Source: Saprospiraceae bacterium
Lineage (GTDB): Bacteria; Bacteroidota; Bacteroidia; Chitinophagales; Saprospiraceae
Direction: 5' to 3'
DNA length: 40,402 nucleotides
Assembly (NCBI GenBank): GCA_043728105.1
Contig: JAYTMW010000057.1
Coordinates: 1 to 40,402, forward strand
The position numbers were made by a program, and so were the translations under genes. This document shows, piece by piece, positions 1 to 36,361 of this stretch. The notes under the pieces are model-generated. The model was given only the letters and a program-made list of their open reading frames with translations. It was not told the origin of the DNA and did no database searches. Position 1 is the stretch's first letter. Each line of letters opens with the position of its first letter.

Positions 1-900
1 TGCCATTTTATGCAATTCACTCCATGATTTGGTGTCTAAAAACAAGTTTGTTGCCTTCAACAAATCTTGACGCAGTTCTAAGGTGTACCATATTTCTTCT
101 AATCCTGCTCGATAATATTTCGCCCGCATCTCATCTAATTCACTCTGCGTAAACACATTCGACGGTTGACCTGTTCCCCATGCACCGCCGCCACCGCCGC
201 CATTGTTTCCGCCTAACCCTCCTGGCGTACCTGACGTAGTCGGTGGCGCATCATCCGTGCATGTGATGTACTCTACATCAATTGTGTAATCGTCACCACT
301 AAACACATACGGACTATAAGTTTGTATTGTATAGGTGTGCAATACGCATCCTCTTACACCCAAGGGCTGCCCACCCGCCTTTGCCCGTTTGGCTTTGGCT
401 TGACCTTTATACTGCCCATTTTCGATATAAAAACCATGTTCGTACTTGCCGCCAAGGCTTGTGTATATGGCGGTGCCTGTAAAATCTTCTACGCTATACG
501 CTCCTTTTTTGGCAGTATGATATGCCTTATCTGGTACGTAAATTACTAACTTTCCTATAATTGTACCGTCTAACTGTCGAGTTGCCAATAATTTGAATTG
601 CGCATGATTATTGCCGCCAATCGCCAAAGGCGTTATTAAAAATTGGTGGGATGTTTGACTAAATCCGTTTTTTGATTGCCCCCATTCGGGCTTGGCTCGT
701 GGCAAAAGTGTGGAATCTTCACCCAAACTATTAGTCCCTTGTTCAACGGCTAATTTTTGCGCATACCATTGTTTCACTTCTTCAACCGTAATTGGATTTT
801 GTTGTGGATTATCTAAGCTTGAATCGATAAATATTAAGGGGTCACTTATTGATTCTATTTTCTGGCACCCCCAAAGCACCCCAAGCACAAGAATGGCCAA
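1..900 (-). CDS. Polymorphic-family lipoprotein, 5' portion only (C-terminus lies beyond window start); paralog of 24953..26683
   Basis: Absent from the ORF track because it runs off the window. Hand translation of the minus strand from TTG at 900 gives 300 codons without a stop (MAILVLGVLWGCQKIESISDP..NPITVEEVKQWYAQK..YSVEDFTGTAIYTSLGG..GGLGGNNGGGGGGAWGTGQ..). Lipobox LWGC. The N-terminal half aligns with the 576-aa ORF (NPLTVEMVQTWFESK; FSVDDFSGLFYQLG). Both have a Gly-run linker and differ after it. Confidence 0.7.
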   Translation of the reverse strand, partial: MAILVLGVLWGCQKIESISDPLIFIDSSLDNPQQNPITVEEVKQWYAQKLAVEQGTNSLGEDSTLLPRAKPEWGQSKNGFSQTSHQFLITPLAIGGNNHAQFKLLATRQLDGTIIGKLVIYVPDKAYHTAKKGAYSVEDFTGTAIYTSLGGKYEHGFYIENGQYKGQAKAKRAKAGGQPLGVRGCVLHTYTIQTYSPYVFSGDDYTIDVEYITCTDDAPPTTSGTPGGLGGNNGGGGGGAWGTGQPSNVFTQSELDEMRAKYYRAGLEEIWYTLELRQDLLKATNLFLDTKSWSELHKMA

Positions 901-912
901 TAAACCAAAATT

Positions 913-939
913 CCGAAAACGGCGTTACGCCGTTTTCGG
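913..939 (-). promoter_or_regulatory. Perfect hairpin CCGAAAACGGCG-TAA-CGCCGTTTTCGG carrying an in-frame TAA between a 16-codon leader ORF (ATG 975) and the lipoprotein frame
   Basis: Read directly. ATG 975, TAA 927..925 and TTG 900 are in one frame. The identical 27-nt hairpin occurs at 26696..26722 in the paralog. Confidence 0.6.
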
Positions 940-2346: not shown

Positions 2347-3228
2347 CTACTTAAAACCGACAGCCACAAACCGCAAAACATCGGGCAAAGCGGTGCGCCA
2401 ATATGTCCAATCATGCGCCCCATCACGCACCCGAAACTCGTGCGGTATTCTGCGTTTATTCATCAAAACATGCAAGGTGCAACTGCCTTCAATCAGATAA
2501 TCATCATCGCCGCAATCGAAATACCAACGAGTGGCTTTCAAGGTTGATTCGGGCATCGTTTCTATCAATTTCAACACCGAATTTTTCTGATAATAGTCGT
2601 TTACTTTGTTTAGGCCCCTCAGTTTTTGACCCAATTTGCTGTCAAAACGAGAATCGAAAAGGCTATCTGACAAGGCAATCATGGCTTCGTCTGTACGAAT
2701 TGCACTACTCAAACCCACACTTACTGAAAACATTTCGGAATGCTTCAAACCATACAAGGCCGCCCCATAGCCACCCATTGAGAGGCCCGCCAAAGCCCGT
2801 GAAGCCCGTTCAGGTTTGGTGCGAAAAGTGGAGTCCACAAAAGGCACGAGTTCTTTTATAAAATAATCTTCATACTTAAATTTTCCGTCAAAAGTATTCA
2901 AATAATAATCATTTCTACCATCGGGCATCACGATAATCATTTCGGGAATTGCTTTGGTTTCCATTAATTTGTTCGCCATGCTATCCGCTTTTCCTATCTT
3001 TACCCAATCGGTTTCGTTACCCGAATAACCGTGCAATAAATACAAAACAGGATACCGTTTTTGGCTCTTTTGATAACCATTTGGCAAATAAATATTGTAT
3101 TTCATCCCCTGTTTCAATATAGCACTTTTGATGATTTGGCTATTTAAAACGCTGCCTTGTTGGGCGTTTAATTGTAAAAAAACGCTTAAAATGATTAAAA
3201 TACTGAGGGGGTATTGACTATTTTTCAT
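2347..3228 (-). CDS. Secreted esterase, tandem paralog of 1392..2276
   Basis: 293-aa ORF alignable end to end with the neighbour (GLSMGG, CGDDD, RDGAHD). Same YPLSIL signal-peptide segment encoded by the 13-mer repeat. Confidence 0.8.
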   Translation of the reverse strand: MKNSQYPLSILIILSVFLQLNAQQGSVLNSQIIKSAILKQGMKYNIYLPNGYQKSQKRYPVLYLLHGYSGNETDWVKIGKADSMANKLMETKAIPEMIIVMPDGRNDYYLNTFDGKFKYEDYFIKELVPFVDSTFRTKPERASRALAGLSMGGYGAALYGLKHSEMFSVSVGLSSAIRTDEAMIALSDSLFDSRFDSKLGQKLRGLNKVNDYYQKNSVLKLIETMPESTLKATRWYFDCGDDDYLIEGSCTLHVLMNKRRIPHEFRVRDGAHDWTYWRTALPDVLRFVAVGFK

Positions 3229-14562: not shown

Positions 14563-14600
14563 CATCAATAGCGGGCGATTTCAATCGCCCGCTATTGATG
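14563..14600. repeat. 38-bp palindrome catcaatagcgggcgatt-tc-aatcgcccgctattgatg
   Basis: Read directly. The inner part plus right arm recurs at 26923..26950 (gggcgattaaaatcgcccgctattgatg). Confidence 0.85.
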
Positions 14601-24952: not shown

Positions 24953-26683
24953 TTAAAATCTTATTTTTACAATGGTGCTTTCGCTTCCAGTTGTTGGGTG
25001 CTTGTATATTATTTCTATCGTTGGTGTTTGATAAGAATCAGATGTTGGATACCAATTGAAAATAAAGTTATCAACTTGAAACTTTAACCCGTTTCTACCA
25101 TCTGATATAGGTGTAACTCCAAAAGTATTTTTTAAATCATTCCAAACGTCTTGATCTTTGTTACTATTTGTTAACAGCCCTCCTTTATCATCAACATCCA
25201 ACTTGCTCAATAGTCTGTTTTTTTTCAAACTATCATAAACTTTTTGAAGTTTTTGGTCAATCCCTACAAAATAACGATTTTGCCAAAGACCGCTTAGTCG
25301 TTTATAAACTCTATTGATTTTAGTATAAACTTCTTTAATTTTCCAAAGTGAATTAACTGCTGTAAAACCAGGGAATTTTTTAGCAACAAATTTAAGAATA
25401 GTCCTTGTCACTTTGAATGATAACTTCTCAAGTTTCTGAGTACCATTTTCAAGTAATCCTCTTAATTCAATCAAATCATCTATCCCAAGTAAATTATTAA
25501 GCCATTCCTGTGCTCCTTCCGTAACTAAATCCAATAAAACATTTTTTAATGGGTCTCCACCGCTACCACTTGTCCCTAAGCTGTTGAGCGTATTAGCTAC
25601 CTCTGCAAACTCACTACTCTCATTCGTCAGTTTCTGATAAAGCAAAGCATCCGCTCGGAAATTAGCATCCATGCCTTCTTCTGTTGCTAACCCATCCACT
25701 TCCGCAAAGAGCTCTTTATCAGCATACAAGGCTTCAAATTCAAGAGGATCAAATCCTGCATTGATATACCTAATCTTTGCAGAAGCTTTTTCAATTGCGG
25801 CATCATTGGCTACCGCACCAAAAAACGAGTTATCAATTTCATTCGAGAGACTGCTACTCTGACTGGTTCCAGAAGTGCCCGAATTTTCTCCATCAGGATT
25901 AGTGGGATCTGTATTTGGTGATACAGATGGCTGACTATAGCCAAAACCCAAATTGGCGTAACCACCCCCTCCTTCTCCTCCTCCTGGATTTTGAATGAAA
26001 AATTTTGCAATTGTATTTACAGCACAAGTTGCCATACACCATATTTCATCCAAAATTCCAGCACCAGCTCCACCACTCCAGCAATTACAACTTGACCTGC
26101 CAAAATTATTATTGATAATATTTGCACTCAGATACGCTCGTCCAACAAATTTGCCATTTTCAATAGCAAGTATTTTCTGAATAAGTCCGTCCATTCCTAA
26201 TTGATAAAAAAGGCCTGAAAAGTCATCAACGGAGAATTTACTATGGGATAGTTTATAGTTTCTTGTCGGACGGTAAACTTGCAACCGGGCATCAATATTA
26301 TTCGATGAGTCTTTAAAGCACACTAACAAGTAATTCAGCTCCTTACCATCAAGAACCGAAATTTTACTTACTGGTACTACAACAATAGTGTTTGTTTTGA
26401 GATAAGTTGAAATTTTAGCATGAGACCACAATGGTGTAACGGACAATTGCTCATCAGTAAAAAATTTATCTGAGTGCTTAGTTGTATCGTTTGTTGTAAC
26501 TATTGATTTTGCAGAAGATGCAATTACCTTAGTTACTCCATACTTTGATTCAAACCACGTCTGAACCATCTCTACCGTCAAGGGATTGGCGATAGCTGTA
26601 GTGGGATTGCTTGATACTGAGGGGTCTGTTGCGTCTAAGTTTTTCGAACACCCCCAAAGCACCCCAACCAACAAAGCCGCCAA
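24953..26683 (-). CDS. Polymorphic-family lipoprotein: conserved N-terminal domain, Gly-rich linker, divergent C-terminal region
   Basis: 576-aa ORF from TTG 26683 with lipobox LWGC. Cys-rich patch CNCWSGG..WCMATC, then NPGGGEGGGGY and an S/T/G-rich linker. The C-terminal ~300 aa are unlike the paralog at 1..900. Confidence 0.75.
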   Translation of the reverse strand: MAALLVGVLWGCSKNLDATDPSVSSNPTTAIANPLTVEMVQTWFESKYGVTKVIASSAKSIVTTNDTTKHSDKFFTDEQLSVTPLWSHAKISTYLKTNTIVVVPVSKISVLDGKELNYLLVCFKDSSNNIDARLQVYRPTRNYKLSHSKFSVDDFSGLFYQLGMDGLIQKILAIENGKFVGRAYLSANIINNNFGRSSCNCWSGGAGAGILDEIWCMATCAVNTIAKFFIQNPGGGEGGGGYANLGFGYSQPSVSPNTDPTNPDGENSGTSGTSQSSSLSNEIDNSFFGAVANDAAIEKASAKIRYINAGFDPLEFEALYADKELFAEVDGLATEEGMDANFRADALLYQKLTNESSEFAEVANTLNSLGTSGSGGDPLKNVLLDLVTEGAQEWLNNLLGIDDLIELRGLLENGTQKLEKLSFKVTRTILKFVAKKFPGFTAVNSLWKIKEVYTKINRVYKRLSGLWQNRYFVGIDQKLQKVYDSLKKNRLLSKLDVDDKGGLLTNSNKDQDVWNDLKNTFGVTPISDGRNGLKFQVDNFIFNWYPTSDSYQTPTIEIIYKHPTTGSESTIVKIRF

Positions 26684-26695
26684 TAAACAAAAATT

Positions 26696-26722
26696 CCGAA
26701 AACGGCGTTACGCCGTTTTCGG
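26696..26722 (-). promoter_or_regulatory. Perfect hairpin with in-frame TAA between a 15-codon leader ORF (ATG 26755) and the lipoprotein frame
   Basis: ATG AAA AAA TTA ATG TGT TAT TTC GAT TTA TCG CCG AAA ACG GCG TAA CGC CGT TTT CGG AAT TTT TGT TTA TTG GCG.. is all one frame. The hairpin is identical to 913..939. Confidence 0.6.
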
Positions 26723-26950
26723 CGATAAATCGAAATAACACATTAATTTTTTCATAATGTATAAAAATTTTTAAATAAGTTGTTTTGTCAAAATTGACAC
26801 TTAAAAGTAACCTTTACTCTTCGAAGCCGTATTTTTTTATTGTTATTTTTCAAGAAAATACTTTAAAAATGGTATGAAAAACAATGAAATTTATAAAAAT
26901 ACTGAGGGGGTCGCTTTCTCACGGGCGATTAAAATCGCCCGCTATTGATG

Positions 26951-28496: not shown

Positions 28497-28558
28497 ATTG
28501 CGCCAAAATACTGAGAGGGTGCTTTTAATTATGGCGAATTCGCCATAATTAAAAAAAC

Positions 28559-29398
28559 TCACTCCAAATCATCAGGCAATTCAAGCGTCTTATCCCCTTC
28601 TTTCAAATGCTTAAAATTTTGAGCCGAAACTACTTTTTTACCCGATGTCTTTTCAAAATTCTTCCGTGCGCTTCCCGCCGATTTGCCACCCAATTGTGCC
28701 GCATCATGATTCTCTGGAAAGCCCTGTGCATCTTTATCCACGGCAATTTGGCGGGTCGCTTCTTCGCCCAGCATCGTGAAAATGAGTTCCAAATTGGTCA
28801 TGTGGTCACGCAAGTTTTCACGTTGCAAGCCTTTCAAATTTTTATATTCGGAAGGCGACAAACCAAACGTGGCTTTTGAAATCTCCGCCGTTAAAATCGA
28901 ATATTCAATGTTTTCTTTAACGCCCCGTGCTTTCCATTCATCCGTCAATTGTCGTCGAATGTCAATACTTTTCAAGCGGGTTTCAATCCACTCATCAGAA
29001 TACCCTTTTGCTCGGTACAATTCTCGAATACGCTCAATCCCCAACTCGGGGTTTTCGATTTCTTCAATGCGCTCATCCCCCACTTGCGCCAACCACAATT
29101 TAAAAGGCTCGGCTTTGGGCGAAGGGACGGACATAATAAGGCGAAACAAACCTTTGCGATGCGCACAATTCATGCGCTGCGTGCCGCCTTCCGTTGGTAC
29201 AGGAAGGGGGGTGACAATTTGTCCCCACCCTTTGGCGAGTTCGGTATCCCGCTTGCGCAACTTTTTCAGATAATCGGAAGCATTGGGCGTGTCTGTCAAA
29301 ACTTCAACAACATCGGTCAAAACAAACCACCATTGTTCGTCATGCCAAACCCGCCTAACGTTCTTTTCTTGAAAAATAACAATTTTATTTTCAGTCAT
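28559..29398 (-). CDS. Bro-N domain protein (BRO/antirepressor-like family)
   Basis: 279-aa ORF. N-terminal VRRVWHDEQWWFVLTDVVEVLTD, then SPKAEPFKLWLAQVGDERIEEIENPEL..YSDEWIETRL..LTDEWKARGV..ILTAEISKATFG, matching the conserved bacterial Bro-N family as I recall it. Confidence 0.7.
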   Translation of the reverse strand: MTENKIVIFQEKNVRRVWHDEQWWFVLTDVVEVLTDTPNASDYLKKLRKRDTELAKGWGQIVTPLPVPTEGGTQRMNCAHRKGLFRLIMSVPSPKAEPFKLWLAQVGDERIEEIENPELGIERIRELYRAKGYSDEWIETRLKSIDIRRQLTDEWKARGVKENIEYSILTAEISKATFGLSPSEYKNLKGLQRENLRDHMTNLELIFTMLGEEATRQIAVDKDAQGFPENHDAAQLGGKSAGSARKNFEKTSGKKVVSAQNFKHLKEGDKTLELPDDLE

Positions 29399-33960: not shown

Positions 33961-34614
33961 ATGAAAATAGGTGTCTCAAATTTAAAAGGTGGCGTAGGTA
34001 AAACGACCATTGCTCAAAATCTTGCAGTTTGCTTCGCACACATGGGTTACAAGGTGTGCATCGTGGATACGGATACGAACCAAAACTCGCTTGCATGGTC
34101 GGGTGTGCGGGACGAAAGTTTGCCTGGCATTTTGGTTGTGGGCGCAACGGATTCAAAAGCCTTGAACAAAACCGTGGACAAACTCGACCGTGACCACGAG
34201 ATTGTTATCATTGACGGAACGCCTTCGTTGTCAGAAATGACGACTCGGATTATCCTATCAAGTGATATTCTTTTAATTCCCATTTTGCCAAGCGGACATG
34301 ATTTCAGGGCCATGACTCAATTTGTGGAACGCTATGAACAAGCAAAAGAGTTTAAAGCCGAAATTCCCGCTTATTTCATTCTCAATCAATTTTCTGAAAA
34401 TCTCAATGTGCATCAAGATATGAAAAACATGCTGACGCAATTTGAATTGGGCATTATGGAAACCACCGTCAACAAGCGGGTTTCGTATGTCCGCACAGGT
34501 ATTGAGGGCAAGGGTGTGTATGAGTCAAACGACGATAAGGCAAAGGAGGAAATGGTAAAATTGACCCAGGAGGTTTTGAAATTAGCGCATCAATATAAAT
34601 TCGTGGAAGATTGA
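33961..34614 (+). CDS. parA: ParA-family partition ATPase (small type Ib-like)
   Basis: 217-aa ORF with deviant Walker A NLKGGVGKTT. DTDTNQNS, IIDGTP. Confidence 0.9.
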   Translation: MKIGVSNLKGGVGKTTIAQNLAVCFAHMGYKVCIVDTDTNQNSLAWSGVRDESLPGILVVGATDSKALNKTVDKLDRDHEIVIIDGTPSLSEMTTRIILSSDILLIPILPSGHDFRAMTQFVERYEQAKEFKAEIPAYFILNQFSENLNVHQDMKNMLTQFELGIMETTVNKRVSYVRTGIEGKGVYESNDDKAKEEMVKLTQEVLKLAHQYKFVED

Positions 34615-35253: not shown

Positions 35254-35374
35254 AGAAGCCTATTTTTCTATGTTTGATTAGCCTTATTTTTTGTTTTTGC
35301 TTAAAAAAGACAAAAATGTGGCTCAAATCTCGAAAAATACTGAGGGGGTAGGGGATAACGAACATAAAATTATT

Positions 35375-36361
35375 ATGGAAGAGAATTTATTTAATTTAGA
35401 TAATTTCAATAGCTTAGAACCTAAGAAAAATAGGACGAAAGCGGAAGGCGGGGTGAGCAAAATCACGCAGCGCATTCTTGAAGGTGCGGTTGCGGTGCGG
35501 TTGGATAGGGCGAGCATTGAAGATGCGATTTTTCAGCATTCGGTGTTGTGCCAAACGTTTTTGCCCTATCGCAACCCCGGTGACGAAACCAAAATTTGGC
35601 AACAAAAACAAGGCAATGTCAGTTTGGCGGTGCAAGCCAACCACGTTTTGAATCCTGAAACGGGCGAATTTGAGTTCGTGGGTCTGCCTTATGGGACAAA
35701 ATCCCGCTTGATTTTGGCGCATATCAACTCCGAAGCGGTGAAAACCCAGAACCGTTTGATTGACGTGGAGGAGAGTATGACCGCTTTTATCAAAAAATTG
35801 GGCTTGAATACCGATGGGCGAACCATCAAAGAAGCGAAGGAACAATTGCGCCGTTTGACCGCCTCAATTATCAGTATTGGTTATTCCGATGGTGAAAAAG
35901 GGATGCAAGTGGATTTAAAAATCGTGAAAGCCTTTGACCTTTGGTTTCCAAAAGACCAACGCCAACGGGTGCAATGGACTTCAAAAATCCAACTCACCGA
36001 AGAATATTTCACGAGTTTGATAAACCATGCGATTCCTTTGGACGAAAGGGCGTTGGCGGCGTTGTCTCATAATGCGATGGCACTCGATATATATGCGTGG
36101 CTTGCGCAGAGGTTGCACCGCATTGATTTTAATAAACCACAATTTGTTGCATGGCAAAACCTCAAAGAGCAATTCGGACAAGGCTATGACCGCATGGATA
36201 AGTTCAAAGAGGTGTTTCGCCGCACTTTGAAAATCGTGTTGACGCAATACCCGACTGCCAAATTGTCAGAGGATAAGAACAAAGGTTTTTATCTCTACAA
36301 TTCGCCTTCGCCGATTCCACCAAAGATTATTCACTTGATTGAAAACCCGCCAAAGTTCTAA
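35375..36361 (+). CDS. repA: Plasmid replication initiator protein (Replication initiator protein A / RPA-like RepA)
   Basis: The ORF track starts at 35291, but that extension reads through the 13-mer repeat. ATG at 35375 (MEENLFNL..) is preferred. LPYRNPGDE..GLPYGTKSRLILAHINSEAVKTQNRLIDVEESMTAFIKKLGL..DGRTIKEAKEQLRRL matches my recollection of the RPA family. Iterons follow directly. Confidence 0.75.
   Translation: MEENLFNLDNFNSLEPKKNRTKAEGGVSKITQRILEGAVAVRLDRASIEDAIFQHSVLCQTFLPYRNPGDETKIWQQKQGNVSLAVQANHVLNPETGEFEFVGLPYGTKSRLILAHINSEAVKTQNRLIDVEESMTAFIKKLGLNTDGRTIKEAKEQLRRLTASIISIGYSDGEKGMQVDLKIVKAFDLWFPKDQRQRVQWTSKIQLTEEYFTSLINHAIPLDERALAALSHNAMALDIYAWLAQRLHRIDFNKPQFVAWQNLKEQFGQGYDRMDKFKEVFRRTLKIVLTQYPTAKLSEDKNKGFYLYNSPSPIPPKIIHLIENPPKF

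Follow-up and report, generated by a model that had tools for sequence, protein, structure and literature searches.

What does an in-frame stop codon do in the middle of a conserved lipoprotein signal peptide? This question is raised by a stretch of 40,402 nucleotides (nt) of DNA from a Saprospiraceae bacterium (Bacteroidota; contig JAYTMW010000057.1 of assembly GCA_043728105.1), here called the window, which carries two related genes for putative lipoprotein toxins, copy A and copy B. In both genes an ATG and 14 further codons are followed by a TAA at the apex of a perfect hairpin of 12 base pairs (bp). Comparison with related genes suggests that the hairpin, not the stop, is maintained, and that the loop is invertible, the stop being one of its two states.

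Copy A is located on the minus strand. From the ATG at 26755-26753 a 15-codon leader, MKKLMCYFDLSPKTA, leads to the TAA at 26710-26708, which is placed exactly between two perfect inverted-repeat arms of 12 bp (repeat and spacer together spanning 26722-26696). After the TAA the frame continues as RRFRNFCLLAALLVGVLWGC into the h-region and lipobox of a lipoprotein, and the open reading frame (ORF) ends at 24953. The parts of the two copies, all on the minus strand, are as follows.

26753-26755, minus strand: start codon of the signal-peptide or leader frame of copy A, read from the sequence; an equally spaced ATG is present in 13 of the 14 genes read
26711-26722, minus strand: 5' arm of copy A, CCGAAAACGGCG, encoding P-K-T-A of the n-region
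26708-26710, minus strand: 3-nt spacer (loop) TAA of copy A, an in-frame stop, predicted OFF orientation
26696-26707, minus strand: 3' arm of the inverted repeat of copy A, CGCCGTTTTCGG
26682-26695, minus strand: T-rich tract AATTTTTGTTTATT 3' of the hairpin; hairpin and tract together resemble an intrinsic terminator
26648-26695, minus strand: remaining signal peptide of copy A in unchanged frame, NFCLLAALLVGVLWG, then the lipobox Cys at 26650-26648
24953-26647, minus strand: predicted mature toxin lipoprotein of copy A, with the family N-domain and a C-terminal domain common to proteins P0002 and P0003
24316-24951, minus strand: candidate immunity gene by position, a small ORF of 211 amino acids beginning 1 nt past the toxin stop codon
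970-975, minus strand: two tandem ATG codons of the leader frame of copy B
913-939, minus strand: inverted repeat of copy B, identical to that of copy A, with TAA spacer at 927-925 in the predicted OFF orientation
1-912, minus strand: remaining signal peptide of copy B (Cys codon 867-865) and N-terminal part of the second predicted toxin

The TAA at the hairpin apex within a lipoprotein signal region, which a preliminary description of this DNA had reported for both copies, was confirmed from the sequence coordinates. The same description had noted the shared leader, hairpin and stop of two otherwise diverged paralogs. Indeed, the leader of copy B is that of copy A (leader to Cys, 975-865) and the two genes hardly differ in DNA between the ATG and the lipobox, with mature proteins that are about 25% identical. 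The 27-mer of arms and TAA was found at these two window sites only, with an expectation of 0 in shuffled sequences. The hairpin alone has a predicted folding energy of -20.4 kcal/mol, and scored as a terminator it shows a stem of 12 pairs, 8 of them G-C, followed by AATTTTTGTT. A Pfam scan gave no family match for the copy A protein. The ORF of copy B extends beyond the edge of the window; P0005, the full-length representative of its cluster, has a C-terminal DUF6973 domain.

The sole in-frame start past the copy A stop that yields a long ORF is TTG 26683, as had been claimed, and it leaves 11 residues before the Cys, none of them basic. Because the other lipoproteins of the window have ordinary signal peptides with basic MKK or MRK starts and 15-19 residues before the Cys, such a start would be atypical for this genome.

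An exhaustive profile search of representatives with the N-terminal domain of copy A yielded 580 clusters at 50% identity. It was through this search that uninterrupted leaders came to light, after a word-indexed protein search that was nearly blind to the family (3, 1 and 7 matches). The N-termini of 153 family proteins were compared. Of these, 49 start a few residues ahead of the lipobox Cys and lack a basic residue there, like the gene calls of the window (OFF-like), 41 start at a later position, 53 have longer signal peptides of other kinds and 10 carry uninterrupted versions of the window leader (ON). The leader of P0035, for example, reads MMKKLMCFSKLSPKKA-F-TPFSIFLLMAGLTLGVFYGC, versus MKKLMCYFRLSPKKA-stop-TPFSIFLVGAALSLGVFYGC at locus L013. 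A Phe occupies the loop position in 10 out of 10 uninterrupted leaders. OFF-like and ON N-termini thus stand at 49:10, and all nine OFF-like calls that were checked in DNA have the hairpin and the stop.

The DNA of 14 different genes was read, including the two window copies, and a single architecture was found throughout: the loop codon is codon 16, the Cys follows 20 codons on, the leader is in frame with the toxin and a T-run lies 3' of the hairpin. The ATG is situated 15 codons before the loop codon in every gene except L026, which begins inside the leader. The contig of L026 starts 3 nt before the hairpin (L026:1-30); the assembly may have broken off in the shared 5' module either because the module is a repeat or because the loop is heterogeneous. 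Arms are 11-12 bp long and perfect in 13 of the genes, L027 having one C-T mismatch, and they enclose spacers of 3-4 nt. Stop loops were present in nine genes and Phe loops in five, distributed as follows (two genes of locus L017 are numbered L017_1 and L017_2).

OFF (stop), loop TAA: copy A, copy B and L017_1 (3 genes)
OFF (stop), loop TGAA: L013, L016, L017_2, L026, L027 and L028/L029 (6 genes)
ON (Phe), loop TTCA: L020, L021, L022 and L024/L025 (4 genes)
ON (Phe), loop TTTA: L023 (1 gene)

TTCA is the exact reverse complement of TGAA, and TTTA that of TAAA, which is also a stop. Both orientations were found on identical arms. The arms CGAAAAAGGCG/CGCCTTTTTCG enclose TGAA in L013, L016, L017_2 and L026 and TTCA in L024/L025; the arms TCAAAAAGACGG enclose TTCA in L020 and L022 and TGAA in L028/L029. 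The latter case had been predicted: P0060, an OFF-looking relative of L020/L022, should have TGAA on identical arms, and L028 and L029 confirmed this. Two neighbouring bases separate TGAA from TTCA, and neither of the one-step intermediates, TTAA (Leu) and TGCA (Cys), was seen among the genes read. With Phe encoded by the loop in each of the 10 uninterrupted leaders, reverse complementation turns any ON loop seen into a stop.

Closely related genes can differ in state, ON and OFF being intermingled. The flanks of L023 (ON) are 91-92% identical to those of L016/L026 (OFF), and L028 (OFF) is 80% identical to L022 (ON). Loop states were reproduced across independent samples, with L013, L014 and L015 alike, L024 like L025 and L028 like L029. 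An assembly artefact was rejected on the basis of this reproducibility and because a k-mer of at least 17 nt that spans flank, arm and loop fixes the orientation. By analogy with the TGAA/TTCA pairs on identical arms, the TAA of copy A would represent the OFF orientation of an invertible loop. Its reverse complement, TTA, encodes Leu, so that both window copies are probably in the OFF state and their predicted ON form is SPKTA-L-RRFRNF.

These comparisons divide an earlier claim in two. The arrangement of hairpin and stop had been regarded as maintained, with members lacking the stop named as the finding that would speak against it. Such members do exist, namely the 10 uninterrupted leaders, and those read in DNA keep the hairpin with TTCA or TTTA as the loop. 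What is kept in the relatives is the hairpin; the stop is replaced by a Phe loop in the uninterrupted ones.

The arms have changed together. In an ungapped alignment of the 4-nt-loop genes (eight distinct sequences), five out of 12 arm pairs had changed in both arms and no pair in a single arm; pairing held in 96.9% of the cells, there was no G-T pair, and the C-T mismatch of L027 was the single exception. RNAalifold missed the hairpin on a MAFFT alignment, in which the 3-nt and 4-nt loop types are shifted in register by +1/-1. The covariation is also visible in the protein, as the residue pairs K-A/P, N-A/H, R-R/V, R-R/F and K-R/A. Strictly Watson-Crick covariation of this kind points to copying at the DNA level, as selection on the RNA would tolerate G-U pairs. 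The Lys-rich n-region derives from the A-rich 5' arm, and the T-rich 3' arm supplies residues of the Phe/Ser/Thr type ahead of the h-region, which makes a signal peptide able to host such a palindrome.

The element would accordingly be described as a minimal invertible switch, a perfect inverted repeat of 11-12 bp flanking a T..A spacer of 3-4 nt. In the stop orientation (TAA or TGA-A; predicted also TAA-A) translation would end after 15 codons and the toxin ORF would be left without a usable start or n-region, presumably silent. In the sense orientation (TTC-A or TTT-A, encoding Phe; predicted TTA, encoding Leu, for the window type) a single ORF would run from the ATG through a lipoprotein signal peptide of 35-36 residues into the toxin. 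That inversion of the spacer toggles stop and sense, and by doing so switches the toxin genes OFF and ON, is considered probable.

The flip would most likely result from template switching of the DNA polymerase, a strand switch inside the palindrome during replication. Such an event copies one arm from the other, and the arms would therefore stay complementary. The short, near-perfect repeat, the exact reverse complement of the spacer and the Watson-Crick double changes in the arms are all features of template switching. An invertase-driven inverton has a long segment and an invertase, whereas the segment inverted here measures 3-4 nt, which is too short for invertase synapsis; a flip independent of a dedicated enzyme is therefore favoured. 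No recombinase gene was present among the window ORFs scanned against Pfam, and loci L013-L029 have no common neighbour besides a small downstream ORF. That template switching at the loop amounts to phase variation, at a high rate, reversible at a single locus, recombinase-independent and self-maintaining, is put forward more tentatively, with a confidence falling slightly short of an even balance.

In the OFF state the hairpin with its U-run may also add transcriptional polarity, and the same features suit another device, the leader ORF with translational control or coupling that the preliminary description had preferred. Ribosomes on the 15-codon leader would melt a hairpin terminator, and the toxin would start at a downstream TTG or ATG. 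The terminator-like stems (-16.6 to -20.4 kcal/mol) with their universal T-run and the invariant length of the leader agree with such an attenuator, as does an in-frame TTG or ATG at 7-9 codons past the stop, present in the genes of the TAA type and in L013, L016, L017_2 and L026, four of the six with TGAA; L017_1, of the TAA type, has an ATG where the window copies have TTG. However, homologues with identical arms have a continuous ORF without a stop, so the stop is not a fixed part, and the leader is always in the toxin frame, which an attenuator does not need. The downstream starts leave 11-13 residues before the Cys, none basic, unlike the other lipoproteins of this genome. Neither single-sequence nor alignment folds gave an antiterminator pairing involving the 5' arm, leader codons vary freely at positions 8-10 with no regulatory codons, and no Rfam family matched: Rfam 15 returned nothing at the gathering threshold in the whole window, and around the element sub-threshold chance matches only. 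A conserved restart codon was rejected as well, the TTG or ATG standing at +9 in TAA-type genes and at +7 in the four TGAA genes. Attenuation as the explanation of the stop is thus judged unlikely. Relatives with uninterrupted leaders make control by a leader ORF unnecessary; the terminator-like hairpin stands, and a terminator role may exist alongside the invertible loop as a second layer.

The frame shared by leader and toxin, together with a stop within or adjoining a stem-loop, would also be expected under translational recoding, either readthrough or a bypass in the manner of T4 gene 60 from the GCG before the stop to an Ala codon about 30 nt on. An Ala before the stop and another about 10 codons downstream are present in copy A, copy B, L017_1, L013, L016 and L017_2, and for an adhesin gene of Prevotella a hop of 29 nt has been described (PMC5009743). 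Gene-60 bypassing is defined by matched codons (PMC5009743), whereas the landing codons here vary at the wobble position (GCG, GCC, GCA, GCT) and in the L027/L028 group the codon before the stop is CGG rather than one for Ala; hopping of this type was rejected when the tabulated take-off and landing codons failed the matched-codon test. The frame of the 3' arm differs between the loop-size types (RRFR versus TPFS), which leaves no conserved peptide signal. Recoding, listed earlier as the least plausible option, is very improbable, and it is superfluous given that the uninterrupted relatives simply translate the region when the loop is in the sense orientation.

In the family the lipoprotein N-domain is joined to different C-terminal domains, namely CdiA_C, Tox-PL-2, AHH nuclease, DUF6973 or none that was recognised, and a small ORF closely 3' of the toxin gene was also found in L013, L023 and L024. 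The conserved N-terminal lipoprotein module, the variable C-terminal toxin domains and the small downstream ORF indicate that these are probably polymorphic lipoprotein toxins of Bacteroidota, of which the element forms the 5' module. The earlier suggestion of a small palindromic insertion in a homogenised 5' module retains its second half, the homogenised module; the insertion does not fit. Behind the stop, OFF copies keep intact ORFs of 538-715 amino acids, and several OFF copies occur together, two in the window and two in L017. Multi-copy lipoprotein toxins with a probable role in conflict, mostly in the OFF state, are the kind of product expected of a contingency locus, if the loop affects expression as proposed. 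The OFF excess of 49:10, the intact ORFs and the several copies per genome fit an arsenal of contingency loci, a large and mostly silent set of which each cell lineage would express a few by chance.

The majority of OFF-like copies is also expected if the quasi-palindrome is a mutational hotspot without function that repeatedly knocks genes out, the interrupted copies, including the window pair, being dead or dying. Template switching is an ordinary mutational process (PMC8794818), exact protein look-ups found no heterogeneity at the same locus, and the OFF copy P0004 is truncated. The intact ORFs behind the stop, each with a close small candidate immunity ORF, do not support decay. Every ON loop seen gives a stop on inversion, and the T..A form preserves this property after each flip. 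Moreover, the palindrome is kept across subfamilies with five compensated pair changes despite constraining nine codons, whereas selection on a gene that is needed should remove a purely harmful palindrome through a synonymous change that disrupts it. A hotspot without function is consequently given a low probability, similar to that of the attenuator.

Several observations weigh against reading the loop as a reversible switch. Both orientations were never seen at one locus, the evidence coming from comparisons between relatives, and the exact opposite-state proteins of eight loci were absent from a collection of 15 billion proteins. Every one of the four contigs with the copy A protein is evidently OFF, and P0035 is ON in each of its three contigs, so any switching is too slow to alter the assembly consensus among these samples. 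For the TAA type of the window no ON (TTA) example was found among the relatives read, and for a 3-nt loop an inversion is indistinguishable from a single A/T substitution. Recombination of the common 5' module could carry a state from one paralog to another, in which case the independent flips possibly number only two or three. The truncated OFF gene P0004 (L017) may be decaying. Finally, the candidate immunity ORF begins 1 nt past the toxin stop, and its expression in OFF cells is not explained by the proposed switch.

The window represents a Bacteroidota-type genome, and its other genes include a SusC/SusD pair as well as replication and partition genes. Those located near the toxin genes or relevant to the nature of the contig are listed below.

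33961-34614 and 35291-36361: genes for a ParA-type ATPase and RepA_C
28559-29398: Bro-N gene, also close by
1392-2276 and 2347-3228: a tandem pair of esterase paralogs (PF00756) whose signal peptides are similar

The esterase genes are situated just downstream of the promoter region of copy B and seem unrelated to the switch. The 41.7-kb contig of the window may be plasmid-like. A Rep3 gene adjoins the OFF toxin gene in L027 (L027:1-1226) and, with ParA and RepA_C in the window, this makes at least some toxin loci seem plasmid-borne. The profile of the family N-domain had no matches in plasmids, and neither this profile nor the hairpin patterns had matches in viral contigs. In five other proteins of the N-domain family (P0007, P0039, P0086, P0110 and P0095) the n-region is built from in-frame tandem repeats, such as SLKSQVS in two to three copies, SQRPNVPT in two to three copies and NLEPRTS in four to five copies. 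Such repeats may represent another kind of variable element in the corresponding place of the gene.

Other palindromes were noted as well. When 185,579 species genomes were searched with the 27-mer and a free loop, only an unrelated, G+C-rich repeat family of Binataceae matched. A generic repetitive extragenic palindrome (REP) or miniature inverted-repeat transposable element (MITE) was rejected, with no match in this leader context among these genomes, a set which does not include the source genome. A pattern of leader and 5' arm gave one chance match only in metagenome contigs, in a G+C-rich contig. The Binataceae repeat, from Candidatus Binataceae metagenome-assembled genomes (L001-L012), has the identical 12-bp arms of copy A (L007:2477-2503 versus L010:357-383). 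Among copies sharing the left flank, its loops are GGA (four) and TCC (two), which are reverse complements, and also GAA, AGA and GGC; loop flipping appears to occur among these repeat copies too. In the window itself, a perfect palindrome with 17-bp arms, CATCAATAGCGGGCGAT TTCA ATCGCCCGCTATTGATG, is located at 14563-14600, and a partial relative, gcatcaatagcgggcgat TTTA atcgcccg, at about 26920-26950, just upstream of copy A and past a GFO/IDH/MocA gene. These two may belong to a terminator or REP-like family with loops that are also TTCA and TTTA. Locus L017 contains a perfect palindrome with 24-bp arms at 893-943, GAGGTCCCTCAGTATTTTTGCTTT TTG AAAGCAAAAATACTGAGGGACCTC, of which the motif CCTCAGTATTTT recurs in the window at about 26895-26910, upstream of copy A, and near 28500.

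If the loop flips reversibly and at a useful rate, it would be the smallest invertible genetic switch described, working without a dedicated enzyme. It would add to slipped-strand repeats, invertase-driven inversion and methylation as mechanisms of phase variation, and would imply that template-switch 'mutations' can be domesticated. It would also explain the truncated, signal-less N-terminal annotation of most members of the 580 clusters. These genes are wrongly annotated by gene callers, and the usual inverton finders require a segment far longer than 3-4 nt, so switches of this size would go unnoticed. The translation of an A-rich/T-rich palindrome into a Lys-rich n-region and Phe-rich residues suggests a general rule for where such switches may hide in coding sequence.

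Among known systems, the contingency loci of Neisseria are close in logic: the opa genes carry CTCTT repeats in the region encoding the signal peptide, which vary by slipped-strand mispairing. Like such simple sequence repeat loci, the present element would be a recombinase-independent, replication-error-based ON/OFF device, presumably reversible, in the 5' coding or signal-peptide region of many mostly-OFF paralogs. Unlike them, where the repeat number shifts the frame, length and frame are constant here and the flip affects a stop codon. Three mechanisms of phase variation are listed in a 2025 review, and the words hairpin, palindrome and template switch are not in its text (PMC11868660). 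The architecture of the toxins is similar to that of the Amoebophilus effectors with the APD1 and APD2 domains, which have a signal peptide, lipobox and conserved N-domain with variable C-terminal toxins (Zhang et al. 2012, PMC3482391); the four passages on lipoboxes or lipoproteins found in that paper say nothing of a switch in the signal peptide or of its interruption. With T4 gene 60 (PMC5009743) the element shares a stop right after the last decoded codon, a stem-loop and one interrupted coding sequence.

A precedent in mechanism is template switching at inverted repeats, which inverts spacers and homogenises arms (Monttinen and Loytynoja 2022, PMC8794818; Sci Rep 2021, PMC8604942). Common to both are perfect arms, a loop replaced by its exact reverse complement, several nucleotides changed at once and homogenisation that looks like compensatory substitution. 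Those mutations were described as sporadic events in rRNA, microRNA and yeast genes, whereas here they would form a recurrent two-state ON/OFF device in which inversion always swaps stop and sense. The nearest described systems are invertons within genes, of the 'premature stop' type, known from Bacteroides thetaiotaomicron and numerous other bacteria (Chanin et al., 10.1101/2023.03.11.532203), also segments flanked by inverted repeats inside an ORF of Bacteroidota, with a premature stop in one orientation and the full protein in the other. The example given there is a 57-bp inversion, such invertons are presumed to be driven by invertases, and only 7-bp flips in mitochondrial DNA are cited as very short. 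The present element differs in its segment of 3-4 nt, in the replication mechanism without an enzyme that is proposed for it, and in being a conserved module of a whole gene family, sited in the signal peptide.

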